Shown one piece after another: positions 9,991-30,526 of a DNA stretch of 64,000 bases; within the stretch, counting starts at the first letter, position 1; each line of letters starts with the position of its first letter. Source of the stretch: a bacterium. GTDB lineage: Bacteria > Patescibacteriota > Patescibacteriia > JAHIZJ01. The stretch spans positions 8,947-72,946 of the forward strand of contig JAUYLJ010000068.1 of NCBI GenBank assembly GCA_030699685.1. Direction: 5' to 3'. Made by a program: the position numbers and the translations under genes. Under the pieces are notes generated by a model. The model made no database searches, was not told where the DNA came from, and saw only the letters and a program-made list of their open reading frames with translations.

Positions 9991-10094
9991 GACACATAAA
10001 TTCTTGGTAATTAGTTTGAAACGTAACCAAAATAGATTGTGATAAAGAGTTTGAATAAATTGTCGTTTCGATGGTTAAATCGGTATTCTACTTC

Positions 10095-10355
10095 TTTACC
10101 TTAAAAAATCCGCGCGCGCAAAAAGAGAATAGGCAATTTTTCTGCTTGGCTTCGTGCTGACGCACGGGCGGTGGAGCTTCAATAAGGACGAGGCAAAACA
10201 AAAACTATTTTTGCGGGAGAAGGTGATTTTGCTTTGCCTCAACTCTTTTTTGTTGGCAGGATTTTTTTATCCGCCGCGCAGGAGGGTGCGGGAGGAATGC
10301 GCGGCAGATTATTTGCCGTTTGCTTTACGAAAACGGCCATTTATGTCAGGGTAAT
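10095..10355 (+). promoter_or_regulatory. left arm of a ~200-250 bp inverted repeat, immediately upstream of the TruD-like gene; contains a near-palindromic core
   Basis: Reverse complement of 14140..14345 with one ~95 bp indel. The shared core is GGAGGGTGCGGGAGGAATGCGCGGCAGATTATTTGCCGTTTGCTTTACGAAAACGGC(C/T)ATTTATGTCAGGGTA, which includes CGGCAGATTATTTGCCG. Confidence 0.75.
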
Positions 10356-10358
10356 ACC

Positions 10359-11408
10359 ATGACACGCTCAAAACAGTGCAACTATAAACTTAAATGCATC
10401 AATGATGATTTTCAAGTGACGGAAGTACCCTTGATGCCTACTTTAACTTTAAAGCGACCGCGTCGCTTTACTTATATTTGGATTCAAAAAACTGGATTCA
10501 CTACTTTTGATATTATCGAGCAGATAAAAGATTTTTTTAAGTTATCGTTCAGCGATGTATCCAGTCAGGGATTAAAAGACGAGGATGCTATCACAGAGCA
10601 ACTCATCTCAATAAAGAAAATTATAAAAAATGACGACATCATAGCTTTTAATAAGAAAAGCAAGTCCAAAAAGAATTTTTGCCATATTAAGCATATCGTT
10701 GGTTATGGAAATGAGGCTGTAAAGAAAAGAATGCTCCACGGAAATTCGTTTAGAATTGTCATTAGAAATCTGGATAAAACAATCTCCAATACTTTTTTAA
10801 GTTATATCTCTAGCCAAAGACATTATTATTTTATCAACTACTATGATAATCAACGATTTGGAATGCCTAGCGGTCCATACAATACGCATTTGATTGGTAG
10901 GGCTATCGTAGAAAATAAATGGAAGGACGCCTATAAACATCTCAAAAATTCAAATAACTCTCTTCCTAAAATTACAACGAAACTTGAAAGTACCTCCGAC
11001 TTCAAGGAGATATTTCGATTGCTGAACCCAAGGAAGGTTTCTTTTTTTGTTTCTGCTTACAATAGTTTTCTTTGGAATAGTCATGCATCTTCTGTCGTCA
11101 GAAAATATACTAAAAGCAAAAAACATATTTTCGAAAATGTCGGATATCTGTACATACCAACAGCATCTTCATTTCTGTGTCCAAATATCTGCGAGGTGGA
11201 TGGCTATGAATTTCTTGCAAAGAACTTCACAATCGCACTAAAGAAAAATAGTAGAAACCTTGTTGTTGCAACTACGATATATGCTGATGATTTAGAAAAA
11301 GACGGGCTACATAAGGGAAGGTGGAAATTAACTCTTTCTTTTTTCTTGCCAACTGGTAGTTATGCCACCATGATAGTTAAGCAAATCTTCTTGAGATTAA
11401 GTAAATAG
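10359..11408 (+). CDS. truD: TruD-family tRNA pseudouridine synthase
   Basis: N-terminal KCINDDFQVTEV matches KANPEDFVVVE of TruD. Catalytic-Asp motif QGLKDEDAITEQ (compare GxKDxHAVTxQ). INYYDNQRFG (compare NYFGxQRFG). C-terminal LPTGSYATMIVKQIF (compare LPAGSFATSVVRELI). Start moved to ATG 10359 because the track start lies inside the inverted repeat. The gene is markedly AT-rich relative to its flanks. Confidence 0.8.
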   Translation: MTRSKQCNYKLKCINDDFQVTEVPLMPTLTLKRPRRFTYIWIQKTGFTTFDIIEQIKDFFKLSFSDVSSQGLKDEDAITEQLISIKKIIKNDDIIAFNKKSKSKKNFCHIKHIVGYGNEAVKKRMLHGNSFRIVIRNLDKTISNTFLSYISSQRHYYFINYYDNQRFGMPSGPYNTHLIGRAIVENKWKDAYKHLKNSNNSLPKITTKLESTSDFKEIFRLLNPRKVSFFVSAYNSFLWNSHASSVVRKYTKSKKHIFENVGYLYIPTASSFLCPNICEVDGYEFLAKNFTIALKKNSRNLVVATTIYADDLEKDGLHKGRWKLTLSFFLPTGSYATMIVKQIFLRLSK

Positions 11409-11419
11409 ATTCTTATCTT

Positions 11420-12037
11420 ATGAATAAAAATATTGAAATAGAAATACGAGGACCATTGTCGAAAGAAAAATTCAATAAACTAGAGAGTTTTCTTAACGAA
11501 AAAGGTAGGAAGTTAATTGAAAAAAACAGAGTTTTAATTGACTACTCAACTTTTTTAGATGGGGGTATTGAAGATAGAAAAAAAGATATACGCCTGCGCG
11601 TCACTAACGGTGTCCCTGAAATAATAGTGAAAATCGGACAATGGGGCGGGACAGATCAACGAAAAGAGCTTTCGGTTTTAACTAATCCAAGCAGTTTTGA
11701 CACACTCGTCGAAATTTTTGGCGAACTTGGGCTGAAAAAAGGGATGCTATGCGTACGCAGGAGTAAAATCTATGAATATCAAGGAATAGAATTTGCGCTG
11801 GTTGAGGTTCCCAATCATAGCTATTATTACGAGGCAGAAAAAATGGCACATGAAGGCGAAAATCCTGAACAAATAACAAAGGACATAACAAAGGTATGTC
11901 GAGCTTTGCAACTTGAGATATTCGACAAAAAAACATTTTTTGAATATATCCAACGACTGAACAAAGAAGCAAATGAGGTATTTGACTACACTACTTCATT
12001 TAGGCCGAATTACTTCAAAAATAGATTTGGGCTATAA
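11420..12037 (+). CDS. CYTH-domain (triphosphate tunnel metalloenzyme / class IV adenylyl cyclase-like) protein
   Basis: N-terminal EIEIRG..., alternating charged beta-strand pattern (DIRLRV, EIIVKIGQWGG, FALVEVPN), about 200 aa. AT-rich and co-directional with truD (12 bp gap). Confidence 0.5.
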   Translation: MNKNIEIEIRGPLSKEKFNKLESFLNEKGRKLIEKNRVLIDYSTFLDGGIEDRKKDIRLRVTNGVPEIIVKIGQWGGTDQRKELSVLTNPSSFDTLVEIFGELGLKKGMLCVRRSKIYEYQGIEFALVEVPNHSYYYEAEKMAHEGENPEQITKDITKVCRALQLEIFDKKTFFEYIQRLNKEANEVFDYTTSFRPNYFKNRFGL

Positions 12038-12353: not shown

Positions 12354-13499
12354 TCAGAAAGATGCCTTTATGGCATCAAATTTGGGAGGACATACTCCGA
12401 CACACGCGTTGCAAGAAATGCAGTTGTCGGCGATTACAGCGAGCGGCTTCCTGTTAGCACGACGAAGCATCGTCAGGGCATCAAAAGCGCAGGATTGAAC
12501 GCAGATTCCGCAACCAGTGCACTTCTCTTCGATTACGACCGGACATGGTGACGAAAAACGATGTTCGCGTGTCTTTTCAAGTGTGAGTCCGATCAGATCC
12601 TCAATCGAGTCGTACTGAGGATTCTCCGCGAGAAACCTCCCCAGTCCTGCCGTTATGCGCTTGAAGACAACCGGACCCTTCAGTGCTGGCGCGGTGTAAA
12701 GTTGCACTGCTCTTGCGCCTGCCATCAACATCTGGACAACGTCGTCAGCCGTGAAGATTCCACCACATCCGACGATCGGAATGGTAAGATTCTGCGAAAG
12801 TTGATGTACACACCACAGAGCAATCGGGAAAATCGCTTTTCCAGACACTCCGCCGCCGCCACCCTTAATACCGAGCTTGGGTTTGGCGGTTTTGGTGTCG
12901 ATCAACATTCCGGGACCGATACTATTCGTGCAGACGATGGCGTCAGCGCCTAACTCTTGGGCGCGCTGAGCCATAGAGAGTAGCAGGTTCGAGTATGACA
13001 ACTTGATCCAGATGGGCGTCTTTGTAACGCCCCGCACCTTCTTCATTAGTTGTTCCAGATGAAGCTCGTCAACATTCAAGTTGCCGTGCAGTGCGCCTGA
13101 GTGCGAGCAGGAAATGTTGATCTCGTAGGCATCAACATCAAGCTCGTCAAAGGTCTGGATCAAATAGCAACAACTCTCGAGGTCGCGACCAGAAAGAGAA
13201 ACGATGATCGGACAGCCAGCGTCTTGCACATGGCGCACTCCACTGTCTCGCCACTCTGTCCACGGTTTCTCGTTTCCCCATTCGCAGTTAAGCATGTTGT
13301 CTTGTCCGAAAACCGCGTAACGCGGGACGGTAATTCTCGAACGCTCCGGCGGAACGCGTTGCTTGAGCGAACGGGTGACTATCCCCGAACAGCCGTATGG
13401 TTGAGCTCTCATGAAGAACTCTGGCGTTTCGGTAATGTATCCTGATGCCAACAAGAGCGGTGTCTGGAGACTTACACTTCCTACTTGCGTCCTGAGCAT
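12354..13499 (-). CDS. dihydropyrimidine dehydrogenase subunit PreA-like / DHODH-family flavoprotein with C-terminal 2x[4Fe-4S] ferredoxin domain
   Basis: TIM-barrel DHOD/DPD motifs: active-site EINISCSHSG (compare ELNLSCPHG of DPD/PreA), GIKGGGGGVSGKAIFPIAL, VGCGGIFTADDVVQMLMAGARAVQLYTA. C-terminal CTGCGICVQSC...CISCNACVGVCP. No PreT partner is visible. Confidence 0.7.
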   Translation of the reverse strand: MLRTQVGSVSLQTPLLLASGYITETPEFFMRAQPYGCSGIVTRSLKQRVPPERSRITVPRYAVFGQDNMLNCEWGNEKPWTEWRDSGVRHVQDAGCPIIVSLSGRDLESCCYLIQTFDELDVDAYEINISCSHSGALHGNLNVDELHLEQLMKKVRGVTKTPIWIKLSYSNLLLSMAQRAQELGADAIVCTNSIGPGMLIDTKTAKPKLGIKGGGGGVSGKAIFPIALWCVHQLSQNLTIPIVGCGGIFTADDVVQMLMAGARAVQLYTAPALKGPVVFKRITAGLGRFLAENPQYDSIEDLIGLTLEKTREHRFSSPCPVVIEEKCTGCGICVQSCAFDALTMLRRANRKPLAVIADNCISCNACVGVCPPKFDAIKASF

Positions 13500-13501
13500 G
13501 G

Positions 13502-14071
13502 CTATCCTCCTTTCTGTAGATGTGGCGCTAAAATCGCGAGCACTTCCTTAAACACCATGCGTTCTGTCGCTTCGGAGATTTCAACCACCGAGGTAAACAG
13601 TGATCTTTGCCGCAGGATTGTCCTGATCTCGTCATCGGCTGCCGCAACTCTTTTTTCTATCTCTGCAGAGCTTTCTGTCTTTCGTATGATAGCAAGCCTT
13701 TTGTGAAGCAGAGGTAGTTCAGAGGTAACGAAACCGATAGTGATGACTGCAGGATTGATTCTGAGCGCTTCCGAAACATTGTTCGGGTGCAACTCAGTCA
13801 ATCTGATATCTGTGGTTGGAAACAAATCCTTCCCCCTAAGGCCATAGCGATGGCCAAAGAGGTCTTGAACCAACACCAATTCACCAATATCAGCCCTCCG
13901 ATTGAACTCAGAAACTGAAACAGGGATTCTGTTTCCTCTACCCTGTTCGTCTGGTCGCAGGGGGCGGGTAGTAAACCATGTCAGTTCCTGAATGTATGGG
14001 TGAAGCTGCAATAGCCGTTCCTTGACGTATCCCTTACCGATTCCGGAAGGGCCGCTGAAAGCGATTATCAT
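13502..14071 (-). CDS. divergent guanylate-kinase-like P-loop nucleoside monophosphate kinase
   Basis: P-loop IAFSGPSGIGKGY and FTTRPLRPDEQGRGNRIPVSVSEF resemble Gmk (GPSGVGKGT; TTRxPRxGExxGxDYxF). The conserved GMP-contacting Tyr context is altered. Stop abuts the PreA-like start (operon). Confidence 0.6.
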   Translation of the reverse strand: MIIAFSGPSGIGKGYVKERLLQLHPYIQELTWFTTRPLRPDEQGRGNRIPVSVSEFNRRADIGELVLVQDLFGHRYGLRGKDLFPTTDIRLTELHPNNVSEALRINPAVITIGFVTSELPLLHKRLAIIRKTESSAEIEKRVAAADDEIRTILRQRSLFTSVVEISEATERMVFKEVLAILAPHLQKGG

Positions 14072-14685: not shown

Positions 14686-16071
14686 ATGCGAAAAAGACCA
14701 ACATGTATTTCTTTGTTAGTCACACTTTTTAGCATCTGTATATTTTATGTTCTTACTGGACCGGCTCAGGCGAGAGTAGCGTTAACTGAAGGCGAGTTTG
14801 TGGTTCTTGGGGACGACCTTTCACTAGGAGACGTTTATAACCAAATGTTGTTTCAGGATATGGTTTTTGAAATTGATGATCTGGGTAAGGCAAAAGGAAC
14901 AGCCAACGTATCTTTTACCGACTTAGATTTGAAGGGCGCGCTTCGTACCGGAACCCTTACTCTTAATTTAGAGGGGAATTATGATACCAAAGAAAACAGT
15001 TTGAGTGGAACATTCTTAGTCAAATTTACAAGTTCAATGGTTGACGAACCACCCCCACCGCTCCTCTCGTATTATGGCAATAATGAATATACTTTTGACG
15101 GTACTATTTCCGGTGGTTGGTCATCGAAAGAAAGTGCCTTTGAAATCTTTTTCAATGGGACAGCGCATTCGGTTGGTAAAACCTGGAACGGTAATGGTAA
15201 AGAGGAAGAACAGGATACAACAACAGAATGGCACAATAAAGCTGTATTTAGGGAGGACTTCTGCGCTAGCTTACTTGCCCGGGCAGAAAGTAAACCAAAG
15301 TGGAAATTAATTCAAACCGCGCAAGCGAAAGATTCAGGCGCGCGTTTCGCGGCATTTTCAGGCGAGGTTTTAATTGCTCCTCAAGACGATCTTGATGACG
15401 AACGAGCAGCTGAAGACGATATGGTCCTAGAAGAAGGCGATATAGTTACAACTGGTGGAGATAGTTGCGCGATGATCAGCTACGCCGATGGGAGCACGTT
15501 TATTATGAAAGCGCGTTCCAAGGTAATCTTAGCGGCTGCTCCGGAAAGACAAAGCCAATTAGAATTAGTCGCGGGAAATATCTTGGTCAATCTGAAACAT
15601 ATCTACGAAACCGGCCAATTGGAAGTAACTATGAATGATGCGATTGCCGGCACCAAAGGCACGACTTTTGTTGCTTCTGAGGACGGAACCAATTCTACCC
15701 TCAAAGTTATTGAAGGGTTAATGTATTTTCGATCGCTAGCGACCGGTCAAGAAATCGATGTTGGATCCGGCGAGATGGTTTCAGCTGATTCCGATGGAAT
15801 GACTGAAAAAACCGCTTTTGACACTGAGACCGAATCCAGCTCTTGGGAAAAAATTCAAGGAAATTTAACGCTTTTCAACACAAAGTCTGTTGCTAGCGAC
15901 GAGTCGCCGGTAGAACCATCTTCCCAAGATGACACCTCAGAGCCTCAAGAAGAAATATCTTCTGAAGCGGAAGAACCAAAATCTAAGGGAACATTATTTG
16001 CAATACTGTCATCTCTTGTCGTGCTAGTTGTACTAGGATTTTTGGGAATAAAGTTTGCTAGAAGGAAATGA
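14686..16071 (+). CDS. hypothetical secreted protein with N-terminal signal peptide, acidic linkers and C-terminal TM anchor (possible FecR-like beta domain)
   Basis: Hydrophobic N-terminus (LLVTLFSICIFYVLTGPAQA), central DGSTFIMKARSKVILAA...GTKGTTFVASEDG reminiscent of FecR-type domains, and C-terminal LFAILSSLVVLVVLGFLGIKFARRK. Confidence 0.4.
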   Translation: MRKRPTCISLLVTLFSICIFYVLTGPAQARVALTEGEFVVLGDDLSLGDVYNQMLFQDMVFEIDDLGKAKGTANVSFTDLDLKGALRTGTLTLNLEGNYDTKENSLSGTFLVKFTSSMVDEPPPPLLSYYGNNEYTFDGTISGGWSSKESAFEIFFNGTAHSVGKTWNGNGKEEEQDTTTEWHNKAVFREDFCASLLARAESKPKWKLIQTAQAKDSGARFAAFSGEVLIAPQDDLDDERAAEDDMVLEEGDIVTTGGDSCAMISYADGSTFIMKARSKVILAAAPERQSQLELVAGNILVNLKHIYETGQLEVTMNDAIAGTKGTTFVASEDGTNSTLKVIEGLMYFRSLATGQEIDVGSGEMVSADSDGMTEKTAFDTETESSSWEKIQGNLTLFNTKSVASDESPVEPSSQDDTSEPQEEISSEAEEPKSKGTLFAILSSLVVLVVLGFLGIKFARRK

Positions 16072-16300: not shown

Positions 16301-16330
16301 CAGTGTAGTTATAACAAAGAAGGCTTCACA
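16298..16330. terminator. stem-loop with flanking T/A runs (bidirectional terminator-like)
   Basis: AAGGCTTCACATGGTGGAAGCCTTTT: GGCTTC/GAAGCC stem followed by TTTT, at the 3' end of the 16326..16859 minus-strand gene. Confidence 0.4.
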
Positions 16331-16859
16331 TGGTGGAAGCCTTTTGGGGCGGGATGAGCACTTCAACGATGTCGAGGGGCATACGCTCGGTGCCATAGTT
16401 CACCCTGACAACGAAAGGAGTGTCCTCGTGACTCACCCCTAGGATACCGATGCCGCTTCCACGGTTGGTGATGACGACGGACTCCGGAGGAAGGCTGGAC
16501 AGGATGCCGGTAAATGCTCTTCGGCGGTCTTCGAGACTGGTGCTGAGAATAGCGGGGATCATGGTGCCGTCGGCGAAGAGAATGCAAGGCCCGTCGTCGG
16601 TGGTGACAAGCCTCTCTGACGTGCCCAAGGCGGAACTGTAGCGGTCGACGCGCAGTCCCAAGGCCCAAGCTGTTTCACGTTCAGCTCGGCCAGTAGCGCA
16701 GCAGACAACCGGCGGACAATGGGGGAGTAAGCTTCGTAGACTGGCTACTATGCTTTCCGCGCCAGGGGAAAGTCCCGGGTCCGGTCCGCTAGCGAGGAGA
16801 CCGGAAACCACCACGTAGATGATCGATTCTTCGTACATAGACCTTCTCCTTCCGGTCAC
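16326..16859 (-). CDS. hypothetical protein, strongly GC-rich relative to surroundings
   Basis: 177-aa ORF with high GC and Ala/Arg/Gly/Pro bias. No motif recognised. Sits next to the third att-like fragment. Confidence 0.35.
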   Translation of the reverse strand: MTGRRRSMYEESIIYVVVSGLLASGPDPGLSPGAESIVASLRSLLPHCPPVVCCATGRAERETAWALGLRVDRYSSALGTSERLVTTDDGPCILFADGTMIPAILSTSLEDRRRAFTGILSSLPPESVVITNRGSGIGILGVSHEDTPFVVRVNYGTERMPLDIVEVLIPPQKASTM

Positions 16860-16983: not shown

Positions 16984-17409
16984 TTATTGTTTCGTCAATA
17001 TCGAAAAGAATGTTTCGAGATGGGCAAACGCTTCGTCAAGAGTCTGGTAGGATCGGGACTGAATGTTTGAATTTCCAAGCACCATCGGACTGGCGTGAGC
17101 GGATGTTCCTTCTCTATAGAGCGCCATGATTGGGATGTTTCGGCTTTCCGCCAAGCCGATCTCGTAACCGACTCCGATTGAAGGCGTGGAAATATCGGCT
17201 ACCAGCGCGTCGGCCTGCCGGACTAAACCAGAATCGTAATCGTAAATCTCTTGGTGTGTAAACTCGACTCTTCCTTTGTCCGTGATGGCCGGATCGCCCA
17301 CGAAATCGCTGAGAACCTGTCCGTAACTTCGCAAGTGCGTAATCAAGGCGCTGTAGATAGTGACATCCTGGCGGCCGCTTCGAATTGATCCGGCGAAATA
17401 TATTTTCAC
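16984..17409 (-). CDS. DNPH1/Rcl-like 2'-deoxynucleoside 5'-phosphate N-hydrolase (nucleoside 2-deoxyribosyltransferase family)
   Basis: VKIYFAGSIRSGRQDVTIYSALITHLRSYGQVLSDFV matches LYFCGSIRGGREDRTLYERIVSRLRRFGTVLTEHV of DNPH1. ADALVADISTPSIGVGYEIGLA matches ADVVVAEVTQPSLGVGYELGRA. Start set at GTG ~17409 because the track's upstream ATG overlaps the preceding gene by 120 bp. Confidence 0.8.
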   Translation of the reverse strand: MKIYFAGSIRSGRQDVTIYSALITHLRSYGQVLSDFVGDPAITDKGRVEFTHQEIYDYDSGLVRQADALVADISTPSIGVGYEIGLAESRNIPIMALYREGTSAHASPMVLGNSNIQSRSYQTLDEAFAHLETFFSILTKQ

Positions 17410-18077
17410 TATATCCGTATGCCAAAACTTTGGAATATCCCCAGCACTCCGTGGAGAATGCCAAAAACAATGCTCAGCCAGGCCATATAGCGGTGGTAGT
17501 AGCTCATCTTGACGATGGAGTTGTCCCATTTATCCGGTCCGGGTATCTTTCCTTTCCAGGGAACGGAACGGACGCACCAGGGCATGACGTAACAAGACAT
17601 GAAGTTCAAAATGAAGACCAGCGCGAACACATAGCCGGTCCAGGCCGTGAGGTTTTTGTCAAAAAGCAGGATGTTGGAGCGACCCGCGGATCCCGTCTTT
17701 TCTGTCCCAGGTTCACCCAGCCGTCCGACTACCTCGAAGCCGGCAAAGACTTCCGTGCCGTGCGGTGCTTCGGAAAGCGCCTGGGTCAGGTCTACCCCGG
17801 CCGCGTGGCCGAAGTGACTGCCTTCCTCAAACATTGCACTGTCGCTCACATCGTAAATCAATCCTTGGTAGGCGTAGTAGGCCGGCCGGCCATCCTGTCC
17901 GTCAAAGGCGCTCAGTTCTTCGTTGCTGAATGCTCGCAGGCTCTCTGTATCGATGGCTGATTCTTCATCAACCGCCGCGGCAATCACCGCGCTTGAGAGA
18001 AATACCGTGGCCATGAAAAGGTAGCCTACAAGAATCGCTTTTTTTGATGGTGGTAATTCCTTCCAGTATATTTTCAT
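17409..18077 (-). CDS. membrane protein with cytochrome b5-like haem/steroid-binding domain and C-terminal TM helices
   Basis: N-terminal signal-anchor, then FDGQDGRPAYYAYQGLIYDVSDSAMFEEGSHFGHAAGVDLTQAL (cyt-b5-like fold pattern), then three hydrophobic helices. Confidence 0.5.
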   Translation of the reverse strand: MKIYWKELPPSKKAILVGYLFMATVFLSSAVIAAAVDEESAIDTESLRAFSNEELSAFDGQDGRPAYYAYQGLIYDVSDSAMFEEGSHFGHAAGVDLTQALSEAPHGTEVFAGFEVVGRLGEPGTEKTGSAGRSNILLFDKNLTAWTGYVFALVFILNFMSCYVMPWCVRSVPWKGKIPGPDKWDNSIVKMSYYHRYMAWLSIVFGILHGVLGIFQSFGIRI

Positions 18078-18080
18078 GGT

Positions 18081-18932
18081 TTATTCCTTTGGGCCAAAGG
18101 GCTGAAGATAGACAACGGTCTCGTCTTCGGGCAGATCAAGCTCGTCCTTGACAGCGTCAGCGTCGTATCCTCCCATGACCACAGTGCCCAGGCCTAATGA
18201 CTCGGCTTCCAGGTAAAGGTTTTGGCCAATATGGCCGCTTTCCTGGTGGACGACTTTTAAACCCGAATCGCCAGGGAAAGAAGCCTGGACTTTGGCATAG
18301 ATGGCTCCATAGACCGCGACGGCTGGAGCGACGCGCAATTGAGCTTGTTGTTCTTCGCCTGTGAGGAGATCCACTTCGCTCTTAAGAAGCCGAATAGAGT
18401 GCGTCTCGGGAAGATAGTGGTACAATCCGGGGTCAATTCCTTCAACATCTCTGACTAATACGTAAAAATTAATCGGGTAAAGACTGCGAGCTGAAGGCGA
18501 AGTACGGCCGCCGCTTTCGGGATCGGTCACGCCCTGGCCGGCCCAGAGCATTTGGCCAAGCTGGGCTTGGGTAAGAGATGCATCCCCATACGCTCGGGCG
18601 CTGCGCCTCTGAGAGAGGGCTTGCTCAACCGACACGCTGCCCAAGCTTTGAGGAGAGGGGAGCGCGATTTCTTCACCAATGTAATTTTTCTCAATTGGAA
18701 CATATTCAGAACTCTCTTCCATAGCGGCTGAGTTTGTGTCGTTTTCTTCCTGAGTAGCCGGGGATTTCTGAAATTCATACGCGTAGAGTATCCAGCCGAC
18801 CGCAGCGATAATGAGTACGATAATCACGGTCATCCCTTGCGGACCGGTAAACATTTTGGGCGGTGGCGGAGGCCCGACTTGAGGGTTTGCGTCAGTCATG
18901 GGTACGGTATTTAGCGTATTAGTTTGAACCAA
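18081..18932 (-). CDS. membrane-anchored SagB-type dehydrogenase / nitroreductase-superfamily flavoprotein
   Basis: N-terminal Pro-rich segment and TM helix. Nitroreductase-fold motifs LSQRRSARAY...QLGQMLWAGQGVT, GGRTSPSARSLYPINFYVLV (PSaGgLYP-type), QESGHIGQNLYLEAESLGLGTVVMGGYD. Confidence 0.65.
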   Translation of the reverse strand: MVQTNTLNTVPMTDANPQVGPPPPPKMFTGPQGMTVIIVLIIAAVGWILYAYEFQKSPATQEENDTNSAAMEESSEYVPIEKNYIGEEIALPSPQSLGSVSVEQALSQRRSARAYGDASLTQAQLGQMLWAGQGVTDPESGGRTSPSARSLYPINFYVLVRDVEGIDPGLYHYLPETHSIRLLKSEVDLLTGEEQQAQLRVAPAVAVYGAIYAKVQASFPGDSGLKVVHQESGHIGQNLYLEAESLGLGTVVMGGYDADAVKDELDLPEDETVVYLQPFGPKE

Positions 18933-18955
18933 TTATAAACGAATATGCGATATGT

Positions 18956-19723
18956 TTAAAGCGATTGCTTGTCAGGTCCCCTCTGCTTCACCAAGCGGAG
19001 TTTGATCAATAAGGCCAACCGTAAGATGAATACCAGAAGCACAAAGGCTGTTAACAATAATGAAAAGGGGGGCAAAACGCTTGGCCGCTCAGTCAGCCAA
19101 ATCTCCCAGACCTCGTATCTTTTGATACCGTAGTGCAAAAGGGCTAAAAAATAGGCCAGATAACCCAGGCGGAGCAGCGGTCTCCAGCGCTGACCGTATC
19201 TTTTCATGCCGGCGGTGTTGGAGATTGAAGCCATGAATAGCAAAATAAGTAAGGCCGTCGCCCCAAAAAGAAAGGCGTACGCGTTATTTACCTGAAAACC
19301 AAACACCTCCCAGACATAGAGAGCGTCGTAGCGGCTTTGATCATTGGGAATGACGAAATACAGGAAGTAGGCGATCAATCCGTGCGCCAGAGCGTAAGCG
19401 AAACCGGTTATGCCTAGGTATTTGCGATAAATGATTTTCGTGTCGAAAAAATCCCAGAAGTAGCAGATTCCGCTGAGCGCAAAAGATAATCCGATCAGTA
19501 TTATGGCCGTGTCGGCTAACGCGGCATTAGCGTGGTTGATGGAATAATCCACGCCCCTGCCCAGCTGGTAGATGATCACGCCGGAGTAGGCGGCCGCACT
19601 CAGTAAAAATGAATTTCGCCATAAGTTCCAGCGCGCGGTGGGGCCTCTTTTTTTCAGTGCCTGGTCATACTTTTGTTGGGCTGTGGAATGACTGGATTCT
19701 GGAGCGGGGCTTTGTTGATCCAT
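18956..19723 (-). CDS. polytopic membrane protein, ferric-reductase-like / MsrQ-like haem-binding transmembrane domain (tentative)
   Basis: About 6 TM helices with conserved His in helices (YALAHGLIAYFLYF, LALLHYGIKRYE), similar to PF01794-type b-haem TM domains. Tentative. Confidence 0.4.
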   Translation of the reverse strand: MDQQSPAPESSHSTAQQKYDQALKKRGPTARWNLWRNSFLLSAAAYSGVIIYQLGRGVDYSINHANAALADTAIILIGLSFALSGICYFWDFFDTKIIYRKYLGITGFAYALAHGLIAYFLYFVIPNDQSRYDALYVWEVFGFQVNNAYAFLFGATALLILLFMASISNTAGMKRYGQRWRPLLRLGYLAYFLALLHYGIKRYEVWEIWLTERPSVLPPFSLLLTAFVLLVFILRLALLIKLRLVKQRGPDKQSL

Positions 19724-19733
19724 TCTGCTTATT

Positions 19734-20453
19734 TTATGATCCTGCTACAACTTTGGCGAAAAAGCCTACTAGATAGCCCACGATTAAAGCGACGCCGGCC
19801 AAGGTAAACATCCTCCAGCCTGATTTCAGCCAATTTTGCTTGGTGTATTTAGTGACGCCCACTCCCAGACCGAAGAGGCCGATCAAGGTAATAACAGATG
19901 AAACAGTGATGGCGTTTTGTGTTTCCAGTAGGAAGTAGGGGACGAGCGGAATTAAGCCGCCAATGGCGTAAGAAACAAACATGAAAATACCGTTTCGGAA
20001 CGGGTGAGAGATTTTCGATGGAAACACTTTCAGCTCCCGGTAAGCCATCTCCCTCAGCATCAGTTCGTTGTTCTTGGCAGCGGCCTCGGACATTTTTATC
20101 GCCAGTTCTTTCGGCCAGCCATCGTCGATAAACATCCGGACTATTTCCTCCTTTTCTTCTTCCGGATATTCTTCAATCTCTTTTCTTTCTTCGTGCAGTA
20201 CCCGCTGCTGGATATCACGTTCCGACAAGCTGGATGTATAGGAACCGATGGCCATGGAAATGGACTCGACTGAAATAATGGCAAACCCCGCTAACAGCAC
20301 CGTGAAATGATCCTGGCTGCCGACCGCCACGCCGGTGATCGCTCCAAGAGTCGAAACCATTCCGTCCTGCATGCCAAAAACCACTTCGCGGATATTCTCA
20401 ACGACGCTTCCTTCCTGCTGATGAATGTATTCTGGATTTCGCGGTACTTGCAT
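19734..20453 (-). CDS. VIT1/CCC1-family iron/manganese transporter
   Basis: NIREVVFGMQDGMVSTLGAITGVAVGS and MFIDDGWPKELAIKMSEAAAKN are VIT-family hallmarks. The track ORF extends to 20531; start at the internal Met (MQVPRN.., ~20453) is preferred to leave room for the divergent promoter. Confidence 0.7.
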   Translation of the reverse strand: MQVPRNPEYIHQQEGSVVENIREVVFGMQDGMVSTLGAITGVAVGSQDHFTVLLAGFAIISVESISMAIGSYTSSLSERDIQQRVLHEERKEIEEYPEEEKEEIVRMFIDDGWPKELAIKMSEAAAKNNELMLREMAYRELKVFPSKISHPFRNGIFMFVSYAIGGLIPLVPYFLLETQNAITVSSVITLIGLFGLGVGVTKYTKQNWLKSGWRMFTLAGVALIVGYLVGFFAKVVAGS

Positions 20454-20547
20454 AAATTTACCTCGTAATACTAGCGTAAATCGACAAAACGGGCAATAGT
20501 AAAGTGGCCGAATGACGCCCTCCTTCTTCAATGGTATTATATACTAT

Positions 20548-21363
20548 ATGGATTCCAACAATATCGTGGTAATGAAAATCGGCGGTAGCGTCATCACGCA
20601 AAAAAGCAGGGATCGATTAGTCATACGCCAGAAATTATTGCGGGACATTAGCCGGCAAATCCGCCAGGCCTTGGACAACCGGCAACACGGCCTAGTCTTG
20701 ATTCACGGCGCCGGTTCTCAGGGACACCACTTGGCGTTGAGTTATGGGCTCAAAAACGGTACGCGCCGAAGCGCGCGCAAGCTGACCGGCGCCAGAGTTT
20801 CAACCCTGGTGGATCAGCAACTTTCCATGACAATGACGGATATTTTGACAGAGAGCGAATTGCCCGTTGTGCCGCTCCATCCCTCATCCTTGGTATACGG
20901 AAAGAACGGCAATATTGATTCGGTATTCATGGATCCTATTTGCAAAGCGCTGGAGCTTGGGCAGATCCCGATGTTGCACGGCGACATGATGTATGACGCG
21001 AAACTTGGGATGTCCATTTGTTCAGGTGACGTATTGGCCGCCAAGCTGGCAAAAGCCCTGCGCTCATCCCGGATCCTCTTTGCCACTGATACTGACGGCT
21101 TGTATGATCGCGATCCCTTTCAGTATTCAGATGCCACGCTGATCCCCAAGATACGGCGAGAAGAGGTTTTACGGAGCCTCATAACTTTGGGCCAATCGCA
21201 CCATAAAGACGCGACAGAAGGCATGCGCGGCAAAGTACGTTCAGTATTGAAAGTAAAAAACCCGCGTTTGAAAGAAGTACAAATTTTCAATGGCACAAAA
21301 GCGCGAAATTACTTCCTGGCATTAAGCGGAAGAAAATTCAGATCCACCCGCATACTCTCCTAA
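20548..21363 (+). CDS. isopentenyl phosphate kinase-like (amino-acid-kinase fold)
   Basis: MKIGGSVITQK ... VLIHGAGSQGHH (compare IPK VLVHGGGSFGH) ... DGLYDRDP. Start set at the MDSNNIVVMKIGGS Met. Confidence 0.6.
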   Translation: MDSNNIVVMKIGGSVITQKSRDRLVIRQKLLRDISRQIRQALDNRQHGLVLIHGAGSQGHHLALSYGLKNGTRRSARKLTGARVSTLVDQQLSMTMTDILTESELPVVPLHPSSLVYGKNGNIDSVFMDPICKALELGQIPMLHGDMMYDAKLGMSICSGDVLAAKLAKALRSSRILFATDTDGLYDRDPFQYSDATLIPKIRREEVLRSLITLGQSHHKDATEGMRGKVRSVLKVKNPRLKEVQIFNGTKARNYFLALSGRKFRSTRILS

Positions 21364-21374
21364 ACAAAGAACGC

Positions 21375-21824
21375 TCACCTCAGGCAAGCGTTCGATTCAG
21401 GCCTACTTCTTCGGGCAAGCAGCTCATCCATGACCGGAGCGACTTCACGCCGCACGGAGTTCTGCAAAAGGTCCGGCGGCGATACCCAGCCCACCACCTC
21501 CACGTCACTGTCTTTGGACGTGAATTTGGCATCAGTTCTGCCGCAATAGCGGGCGGTGAAAACGATGGTGACTGTCAGGGGAATCACTGACCAGACGCCG
21601 AACAAGCGTAAGTCCTCGCACGGAAATTCCCCGCCCAGCTCCTCCTCCATCAGTCGTCGGAGGGTGTCACTGAAGTCCCGATCAATCTGAGGTTTCCAGG
21701 TTTCGAGGGGGAAGGAGAGCATGCCCGCGCGCTTCAGGATAACGGGTTTGTCCCGAAGCTCACGCACGACCATGATCTTGCCCTCCTGGTTAAAGAGCAG
21801 TAAGCCAACACCGGTGGTAATCAC
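21375..21824 (-). CDS. NUDIX-family hydrolase (tentative)
   Basis: Nudix-box-like FPLETWKPQIDRDFSDTLRRLMEEELG about 60 residues from the N-terminus. Confidence 0.45.
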   Translation of the reverse strand: MITTGVGLLLFNQEGKIMVVRELRDKPVILKRAGMLSFPLETWKPQIDRDFSDTLRRLMEEELGGEFPCEDLRLFGVWSVIPLTVTIVFTARYCGRTDAKFTSKDSDVEVVGWVSPPDLLQNSVRREVAPVMDELLARRSRPESNACLR

Positions 21825-30043: not shown

Positions 30044-30526
30044 ATGAATCAATACTCTACAAAAGCCCGCGAGATTTTAGAGCAGAATTTTTACTGCACT
30101 GTTGCAACGGCGTCAAAAGATGGCGTGCCGTGGGTGTCGCCAGTGTTTTTTGCATACGACGAGCAGTATCGGATTTATTGGGTGTCGAACAAAGATGCCA
30201 AACATTCGCTTCTGATTCGTGAGAATCCACGGGTTGCTCTTGTCGTCTTTAACTCTACAGCTCCTGAAGGGGAGGGTGATGGGGTGTATATAGAAGCAGC
30301 TGCCACAGAACTTAAAGCAGCCGAAGATGTGCAGCTTGCTATGGATGTACTAGGAAGGCGAGTTAGTAAGGATGAATTTCGAGTAAAAGACAAAGACCAA
30401 GTAACTGGCAACGGCGTATGGCGCATTTATCGCGCAACGCCAAAAAAAACGTGGAAGCTCTCACGTGGCAAGTTGATTCGTGGTCAATATGTTGATGAGC
30501 GAGTTGAGGTGCAACTAACACGGTAA
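30044..30526 (+). CDS. pyridoxamine 5'-phosphate oxidase-like FMN-binding split-barrel protein
   Basis: FYCTVATASKDGVPWVSPVFFAYDEQYRIYWVSNKDAKHSLLIRENPRVALVVF, a PNPOx-like fold pattern. Confidence 0.55.
   Translation: MNQYSTKAREILEQNFYCTVATASKDGVPWVSPVFFAYDEQYRIYWVSNKDAKHSLLIRENPRVALVVFNSTAPEGEGDGVYIEAAATELKAAEDVQLAMDVLGRRVSKDEFRVKDKDQVTGNGVWRIYRATPKKTWKLSRGKLIRGQYVDERVEVQLTR

Follow-up and report, generated by a model that had tools for sequence, protein, structure and literature searches.

A 64,000-nucleotide stretch of the genome of a bacterium of the Patescibacteriota (assembly GCA_030699685.1, contig JAUYLJ010000068.1, positions 8,947 to 72,946), called the window below, was analyzed, and coordinates are given within it. 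As read from the sequence, its minus strand carries between 16984 and 20453 five consecutive open reading frames (ORFs), termed VIT1, FRD, NR, b5TM and DNPH1-like. NR is a nitroreductase-fold protein, b5TM combines a cytochrome b5 domain with transmembrane (TM) segments, and FRD is a stand-alone ferric-reductase-domain protein. The conserved functional unit is the pair formed by NR and a cytochrome b5, not the five-gene run. NR and b5TM may constitute a two-component flavocytochrome of extracytoplasmic location, with a possible wiring through the membrane. This is the favoured reading, held with about even confidence.

A preliminary description of this DNA had assigned a domain to each of the five genes, and all five assignments scored above the curated thresholds (PF01988, PF01794, PF00881/TIGR03605, PF00173 and PF05014). 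It had also proposed a membrane-associated redox module, which is indeed present in the form of the NR and b5TM pair. The component domains are all known, but an exported nitroreductase-fold flavoprotein paired, and once fused, with an exported cytochrome b5 of the cytb5M class and a histidine-bearing TM hairpin was not found described. No literature match was found for nitroreductase, cytochrome b5 and Patescibacteria together.

Conservation of the NR and cytochrome b5 pair

NR (18081-18899, minus strand) encodes 272 residues that match PF00881 (E=1.4e-24) and TIGR03605 (94.1 bits for a cutoff of 78.4). The 222-residue b5TM (17409-18077, minus strand) matches PF00173 with 27.4 bits for a cutoff of 23.7. 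An NR gene directly followed by a b5TM homologue was found in seven independent loci from bacteria of the candidate phyla radiation (CPR): L002/L005 from Kerfeldbacteria, L003, L004, L028, L029, L030 and L031. The identities with the window proteins range from 36 to 60% for NR and from 38 to 57% for b5TM. The gaps between the called genes are −4 to +10 bp, L031 excepted, and all other neighbours differ. In an eighth locus, that of P0020, NR overlaps by 4 nt a Cyt-b5 gene encoding 226 residues. The ninth, L116 from Lloydbacteria, is a variant (entries L116:4001-5226 and L116:844-1422) in which a TM-anchored NR lies beside, and convergent with, a TM-anchored classical cytochrome b5 with an HPG...HS pattern. 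The surroundings give two weak hints of a link to flavin supply: at the P0020 locus a flavokinase gene stands two genes from the pair, and in L116 an FMN_red/Flavodoxin_2 protein is encoded at a distance of 2.6 kb.

NR was thereby paired with a cytochrome b5 at 9 of 9 CPR loci and at 0 of 75 non-CPR NR loci. Tight packing of genes on one strand is ordinary in bacteria and by itself tells no more than chance, but the recurrence of the NR and b5 adjacency in unrelated contexts is a non-trivial signal. Searches with tblastn found no FRD, VIT1, DNPH1 or ORF177 (the ORF downstream of DNPH1-like, described below) in the seven loci with DNA, over about 6 kb around the pair. As the neighbours vary and only NR and b5 stay, the five-gene run is a lineage-specific juxtaposition. 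The view of the five genes as one functional unit is thus not supported, and co-occurrence is retained for NR and cytochrome b5 without FRD, VIT1 and DNPH1.

A single metagenomic protein joins both partners. P0269 (550 residues) consists of a TM anchor, a Nitroreductase domain (135-315), a Cyt-b5 domain (360-419) and a hairpin (462-548). Since the NR and b5 domains are contiguous between two TM segments, both must lie on the same side of the membrane. This fusion is considered supportive rather than conclusive. A scan of genome contigs with the b5TM alignment retrieved only the Kerfeldbacteria locus at full length. The other 22 matches, from Syntrophobacteraceae, Bacillota and further groups, covered no more than the b5M domain, had no NR close by and are uninformative on the pair.

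The distribution also bears on a broader reading, in which the five genes, or at least VIT1, FRD, NR and b5TM, would form one co-transcribed extracytoplasmic metal-reductase or iron-handling module. FRD would export electrons, b5 and NR would reduce Fe(III) or another metal, and VIT1 would move the ion. The successive spacers of 10, 23-56, 3 and −1 bp and the lack of a terminator between the five genes are compatible with such a module, as are the above-threshold calls for the FRD and b5 domains. At L028 a FUR gene lies 4 kb away from the pair, and L030 contains a metal P-type ATPase. VIT1 proteins are, by their usual annotation, exporters of Fe2+/Mn2+ from the cytosol, which misfits an uptake after reduction. 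At 7 of 7 other loci with DNA, the ~6 kb around the pair contain no FRD, VIT1 or DNPH1; FRD homologues occur alone, and promoter-like sites precede NR and DNPH1. On this evidence the metal-reductase module is regarded as unlikely. It also draws on a preprint that reports a colocalisation of PF01794 and cytochrome b5 (PF00173) genes in 185 genomes, confined to CPR, and proposes a membrane complex of undetermined role (10.1101/2021.11.17.468889). Because of this colocalisation, the adjacency of FRD may still be meaningful, and perhaps functional, here. FRD is nevertheless no constant companion of the NR and b5TM pair.

The published CPR clusters of pFre and cytochrome b5-like genes resemble the window locus in being CPR-specific and in encoding a TM-anchored b5 near PF01794, an adjacency that the window shows. 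Those clusters centre, however, on a cytb5MY with a tyrosine ligand, on two b5-like proteins of atypical kind and on a two-component regulator (10.1101/2021.11.17.468889). The term nitroreductase is absent from that work, whereas the constant partner of b5 here is NR, FRD being missing in 7 of 7 other loci.

A nitroreductase-fold protein predicted to be exported

NR consists of a short cytoplasmic N-terminus with a conserved PPPPPKMFTGPQG motif, a TM anchor (residues 22-40; 18780-18836, minus strand), an acidic linker and a nitroreductase domain (residues ~78-272; 18084-18668, minus strand). It is 100% identical to an NCBI protein from a metagenome-assembled genome annotated as 'SagB/ThcOx family dehydrogenase'. 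The next-best match, from Candidatus Kerfeldbacteria, has 60% identity. The AlphaFold2 (AF2) model has a predicted local distance difference test (pLDDT) score of 80. With this model, the top Foldseek matches are the flavin mononucleotide (FMN) nitroreductases 3hj9, 3hoi and 8cqs, with a probability of 1.00, target-normalised TM-scores of 0.79-0.88 and 25-28% identity. ThcOx, McbC and BmdC rank after them. In the alignment of homologues, R109, R110 and R113 are invariant, as are G141, R143, P146 and S147, and the motifs RRSxR and RTxPS (G-R-T-x-P-S) are kept. By its modelled fold and its FMN-phosphate arginines, NR falls within the nitroreductase superfamily and is predicted to bind FMN.

The closest structures, 3HJ9 (Reut_A1228), 3HOI (BF3017) and 8CQS (BT_0217), have approximately the size of the mature NR domain. 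They are small SagB-like FMN nitroreductases, uncharacterised and without known cytochrome partner. No function was found in the literature on the three proteins; BT_0217 is listed only as one of nine nitroreductase genes of B. thetaiotaomicron that were deleted together (PMC13171619).

The flavin domain of NR is predicted to be extracytoplasmic. A TM segment is present at the N-terminus of 74 of the 120 listed homologues. Among the first 70 homologues, for which the N-termini were read, those without TM segment carry Sec signals (P0067, P0068), lipoboxes (P0013, P0037, P0043, P0053) or a twin-arginine (Tat) signal (P0055, SRLKRRTFL). Signals of the same kinds were found at the N-termini read in 75 metagenomic NR loci. 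In some of the N-termini of P0020, P0026, P0030, P0261 and P0269, a cytoplasmic CxxC...CxxCLKGGxP motif stands just ahead of the TM anchor, and the cytoplasmic loop of the hairpin contains four cysteines in P0276 and P0279. These cysteine-rich motifs, which are absent from NR and b5TM of the window, could be metal or iron-sulfur (Fe-S) sites at the cytoplasmic end.

The annotation as a SagB-type dehydrogenase raises the question of an azoline oxidase. NR would then be a genuine SagB-type enzyme maturing a thiazole- or oxazole-containing peptide encoded elsewhere. With the SagB, McbC, ThcOx and BmdC azoline oxidases (TIGR03605), NR shares the nitroreductase fold, the FMN-phosphate arginines and a score above the cutoff, and ThcOx, McbC and BmdC are among its matches in the PDB. 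The catalytic Lys-Tyr dyad of azoline oxidases is K201/Y202 in McbC (PMC6395948). The comparison was made by alignment to BmdC and 3EO7, the McbC alignment itself not being displayed, and NR lacks the dyad, with SFPGD aligned to PKYG of BmdC and to QYGDR of 3EO7. The position, Ser-Phe or Phe-Pro in the window protein, is variable across the CPR NR clade, where S-F, D-F, K-F, E-F, Q-Y and K-Y were found. As the preliminary description had noted, neither a YcaO/cyclodehydratase nor a precursor peptide is encoded nearby, within ~8 kb on either side. No YcaO/cyclodehydratase was found at nine homologue loci either, as judged from the recorded Pfam calls. Finally, NR is predicted to be exported, unlike the cytoplasmic maturation complexes, and its constant partner is a cytochrome b5. 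NR thus appears SagB-like in its fold and profile score but fails the functional criteria of SagB, and the SagB-type label stands for the TIGR03605 match only, not for the dyad, the YcaO and precursor context or the cytoplasmic location. For want of a dyad, of YcaO and precursor genes and of a cytoplasmic location, the reading of NR as part of a biosynthesis pathway for peptides made on ribosomes and modified after translation (RiPPs) was rejected, a role in azoline formation being highly improbable.

Exported proteins named 'SagB/ThcOx family dehydrogenase' form a very large family: of the first 600 pattern hits in metagenomes from sediments and anaerobic settings (L036-L115), 581 were relatives. 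Scanning metagenomes with the NR alignment revealed no recurrent partner of this family outside CPR, only housekeeping genes, when neighbours were clustered and the 57 that were tightly linked were sorted by Pfam family. What the broad exported family does can therefore not be read from its gene context. Its annotation as peptide dehydrogenase looks unfounded. With most members exported and no azoline-oxidase dyad or RiPP link, the family name misleads genome mining.

A cytb5M domain predicted on the outer side of the membrane

b5TM comprises a signal anchor (residues 14-32; 17982-18038, minus strand), a b5M domain (residues 47-120; 17718-17939, minus strand) that includes S80, H88 and H106, and a C-terminal TM hairpin. 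Compared with the PDB, the family profile matches 6VZ6 and 6NZX with E values of ~3e-28. H88, H106 and S80 are invariant in 21-24 homologues and align to H42/H61 and S34 of cytb5M. In the cytb5M structures, the haem is ligated by H42/H61 and contacted by S34 (10.1101/2021.11.30.470528). By these residues, the b5 domain of b5TM belongs to the cytb5M class with two haem-ligating histidines, and binding of haem b is predicted.

The cytb5M proteins of known structure, from Hadesarchaea (6NZX) and Methanococcoides burtonii (6VZ6) (Tamarit et al. and Teakel et al., preprints, 2021), are soluble chains of 78 residues, whereas the b5M domain of the window is predicted to be exported behind a signal anchor and is fused to a conserved histidine-bearing TM hairpin. 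Unlike them, b5M of the window type is always encoded beside an exported nitroreductase-fold protein.

The 13-residue N-terminus of b5TM contains 4 Lys/Arg. There are 6 in the 117 residues of the b5 segment, together with 20 Asp/Glu, and 6 in the 28 residues of the TM2-TM3 loop. This charge pattern places the N-terminus inside, the b5 domain outside and the TM2-TM3 loop inside. The divergent homologues P0134-P0141 have a cleavable Sec signal peptide ending with AxA. The b5 domain is therefore predicted to be extracytoplasmic. Signals, charge bias and fusion all give the same predicted location for the flavin and b5 domains.

An exposed haem domain could also serve to capture or sense external haem for a haem-auxotrophic cell, NR being an accessory reductase that aids the release or handling of haem iron. 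CPR bacteria are generally without haem synthesis, and a Fe/Mn transporter and FRD adjoin the pair in this genome. However, six-coordinate bis-histidine b5 sites are electron carriers rather than transfer sites, no transporter is conserved with the pair, and we know of no haem-handling enzyme with a nitroreductase fold. Haem capture is quite improbable.

The C-terminal hairpin

The last 80 residues are the best conserved stretch of b5TM. The hairpin (residues 143-217; 17427-17651, minus strand) includes W146, C162, M165, P166, W167, H195 and H209. Its motifs are W146-T-G, T-C162-Y-x-M165-P-W167 and, in the cytoplasmic loop, PW-G-x-x-PGPD-x-x-D. H195 and H209, 14 residues apart on TM3, are invariant or nearly so across 21 sequences. 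A spacing of 13-14 residues is that of the histidines on the haem-donating helices of di-haem cytochromes b.

All Pfam matches of the hairpin are sub-threshold: Ferric_reduct in 6 of 17 sequences (best E 0.026), Ni_hydr_CYTB in 4 of 17 (6.3e-3) and DUF4405 in 3 of 17 (6.6e-4). These three recurrent families are all haem-binding TM families. A weak similarity to TM2-loop-TM3 of CPR FRD was found with hhalign (probability 22.6%, E 9e-4), in which the C-Y motif closing TM2 is matched and H209-G falls on the invariant H114-G of FRD. In the AF2 model, the hairpin consists of two long helices with pLDDT values of 55-75 only. A single-sequence search of 1.84 billion cluster representatives with the hairpin returned 32 proteins only, P0269 among them. 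Hairpin-only miniproteins of 77-85 residues were not relied on, as P0266 clusters with a protein of 237 residues and is probably a fragment.

As each hairpin offers one histidine-bearing helix, haem binding would need a dimer or a partner. Binding of haem by a dimer of the hairpin is proposed as a reasoned hypothesis.

Possible electron transfer by the pair

In the favoured mechanism, NR and b5TM would insert with the N-terminus inside, so that the FMN domain and the bis-histidine b5M haem domain face the outside of the cytoplasmic membrane, and electrons would pass between the FMN of NR and the b5M haem. The b5TM hairpin would resemble a single pair of helices, with histidines, from a di-haem cytochrome b, and its dimer would probably ligate one or two b haems by means of H195 and H209. 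The conserved, positively charged cytoplasmic loop could in this way be electrically linked to the outer b5M haem. An outward flow is favoured, from cytoplasmic reducing equivalents to the haems and to the exported flavin. In favour of this direction are the conservation of the cytoplasmic loop, the lost dehydrogenase base and the general logic of FRD-type systems. The exported flavin might reduce a soluble acceptor outside the cell; quinone-like compounds, nitroaromatics, metal chelates and O2 are candidates. The payoff would be an external electron sink or a surface detoxifier for a fermentative cell without respiratory chain. FRD may feed the same outer haem pool, whereas VIT1 would act in metal homeostasis and DNPH1 in nucleotide salvage.

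The coupling of a flavin site to a b-type haem is common to the proposed system and to flavocytochrome b2 and cellobiose dehydrogenase. With FRD/MsrQ-Fre and the NOX-type conduits, it would share bis-histidine haems on TM helices that carry electrons across the membrane. Compared to these flavocytochromes and conduits, the pair has a flavin domain of nitroreductase fold, is made of two polypeptides, and would have its flavin outside instead of inside. Its putative conduit is a two-helix hairpin, whereas known conduits are bundles of four or six helices.

The electrons may also run the other way. NR would dehydrogenate an extracellular substrate and hand single electrons in succession to the b5 haem, from which they would reach an external acceptor such as O2 or Fe(III), in the manner of flavocytochrome b2 or cellobiose dehydrogenase, the hairpin being a mere membrane anchor. 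In known flavocytochromes, electrons do run from the substrate to the flavin and then to b5, and the nearest characterised relatives of NR, namely McbC, ThcOx and BmdC, are oxidases. The Lloydbacteria b5, which has no hairpin, also agrees with this direction. However, the Lys-Tyr base for C-H abstraction is not conserved, the window protein having Ser-Phe-Pro there, and the near-invariant TM histidines, C162 and the PW-G-PGPD-D loop are hard to explain in a simple anchor. Reverse flow is a serious rival, although we consider it rather unlikely.

Several points weigh against the proposed flavocytochrome. The likeness of the hairpin to cytochrome b lies under every curated threshold (E 6.6e-4 at best in Pfam, hhalign probability of 22.6%, pLDDT of 55-75). 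The hairpin offers a single histidine-bearing helix, and the helix that would carry the second ligand is missing from the monomer. The absence of the hairpin in Lloydbacteria means that transmembrane wiring is not universal. The P0269 fusion is a singleton from one contig of 4.2 kb. No cytoplasmic electron donor was identified, and no haem, flavin-export or Tat genes were found in the approximately two-thirds of the window that are annotated. Non-covalent FMN and haem b would both have to be loaded outside the membrane, in an organism expected to lack haem synthesis. Nitroreductase-fold enzymes are usually two-electron catalysts, to which a one-electron haem partner is less suited.

A bolder version of the outward flow is conceivable, if somewhat doubtful. 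NR and b5TM would be a CPR-specific minimal transmembrane electron machine, in which a two-helix 'half cytochrome b' dimerises and holds two haems that deliver electrons to b5M and then to the FMN of NR. Ultra-small bacteria without respiration and auxotrophic for haem would in this way have an electron sink outside the cell or a redox exchange with their host. Among natural transmembrane di-haem wires, the hairpin would be the smallest known, and it might be a fragment or an ancestor of the ferric-reductase domain.

CPR bacteria, or Patescibacteria, are regarded as fermenting organisms that lack electron-transport chains, most of them presumably unable to make haem. A surface-exposed pair of flavin and haem would, if real, be a redox interface with the surroundings or with hosts, and would raise the question of the source of the haem and of the flavin. 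The histidine-bearing hairpin may also provide a simple natural model of transmembrane haem binding.

The neighbours FRD, VIT1 and DNPH1

FRD (18956-19723, minus strand) is a six-TM protein with a marginal PF01794 score (30.1 bits for a cutoff of 28). It has 114 homologues, and all those that carry a taxon name are from CPR. In 21 CPR homologues, H114 (TM3) and H197 (TM5) are the only invariant histidines, in place of two histidine pairs, which suggests that CPR FRD accommodates one haem. The preliminary description had likened FRD to MsrQ. An assignment to MsrQ or to an MsrPQ-type system was rejected, given the NF003831 score of 33.6 bits for a cutoff of 130 and the histidine content. FRD homologues stand alone in four further loci, L032-L035. 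In two of them, a protein of 342-345 residues without Pfam family (L032:3946-4974 and L033:3421-4458) is encoded on the same strand 27 bp upstream of the FRD homologue. It may be a partner of FRD.

VIT1 (19734-20453, minus strand; 239 residues), the first gene of the run, encodes a Fe2+/Mn2+ transporter of the VIT1/CCC1 family. It matches PF01988 (191.9 bits, E=1.6e-56) over profile positions 1-213 of 214, as a typical short member of the family, and fails the MbfA equivalog profile (21.9 bits for a cutoff of 450).

DNPH1-like (16984-17409, minus strand; 141 residues) matches PF05014 (E=4.3e-12) and rat Rcl (2khz, E=2.9e-22). Against rat and human DNPH1, the E values range from 1e-18 to 3e-22, compared to 1.3e-5 against a deoxyribosyltransferase. 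The aligned motifs are YF(A/C)GSIR (YFAGSIR), YDYD and PSIGVGYEIG (PS-GVGYE-G). The protein is probably a 2'-deoxynucleoside 5'-phosphate N-hydrolase and a passenger from nucleotide salvage. The family identity that had been claimed for it is upheld by the motifs and the Rcl match, but not its membership of the redox module, as it is missing at the homologue loci. Nucleotide metabolism is represented around it by genes at 12354-14071, 21375-21824 and 16984-17409, all on the minus strand, which include a NUDIX hydrolase and DNPH1-like itself. Also in this neighbourhood are a PreA/DHODH-like protein, in which a DHO_dh domain is joined to two 4Fe-4S clusters, and an ORF for a P-loop-like kinase without Pfam match. 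DNPH1 fits this surrounding theme of nucleotide salvage rather than the redox pair.

Spacing and transcription signals of the run

VIT1 starts with ATG, with GAGG 9 nt upstream. NR starts with ATG in the public gene call (P0001, 272 residues, 100% identical), and an alternative TTG is at 18932. The GTG start of DNPH1-like and the TAG stop of b5TM have one base in common (TAGTG). The spacers are 10 bp for VIT1/FRD, 23 bp for FRD/NR (56 bp with the ATG of NR), 3 bp for NR/b5TM and −1 bp for b5TM/DNPH1. The spacing of 0-24 bp that had been reported is thus correct with the TTG start of NR and incorrect with the ATG.

A promoter-like site (TTTAAA-17-TATAAT, 10/12 consensus positions) was found on the minus strand at 18932..18960, in the spacer between FRD and NR, 33 nt upstream of the ATG of NR. 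It is a lead only. Another one (TTGGCA-17-TATATT, 10/12) is at 17425..17397 on the minus strand, just before DNPH1. The promoter and terminator scan as a whole is not above chance, with 8 sites for 4.1 +/- 1.9 expected. ORF177 (16326-16838, minus strand), located 145 bp downstream of DNPH1, encodes 170 residues of unassigned family, without match in Pfam or NCBIfam, and has a strong ribosome-binding site (GGAAGGAGAAGG). The only terminator-like hairpin downstream of the cluster, at 16343..16320, comes after ORF177, which may be the end of the transcription unit.

Genomic surroundings

The annotated parts of the window encode housekeeping genes (RodA, RF1, S2, EF-Ts, MreB, RRF). Upstream of the run, an archaeal-type isopentenyl phosphate kinase (20512-21363, plus strand; NF040647, 183 bits for a cutoff of 120) diverges from VIT1, with 58 bp between the two start codons, so that two promoters would have to share that space. 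A region at 10001-12000 has a GC content of 0.359, compared to ~0.49 elsewhere, and may be foreign DNA. TruD (10320-11408) and a CYTH-domain protein (11420-12037) are encoded there. The ORF at 14686-16071 (plus strand) encodes a FecR-domain/LipL45-like protein of 461 residues that begins with a signal-like segment, has an acidic tail rich in Ser/Glu and is anchored by a C-terminal TM segment. It is probably a surface protein. Another small flavoprotein, of 160 residues and with a PNPOx_N (FMN-binding split-barrel) domain, is encoded at 30044-30526 (plus strand).

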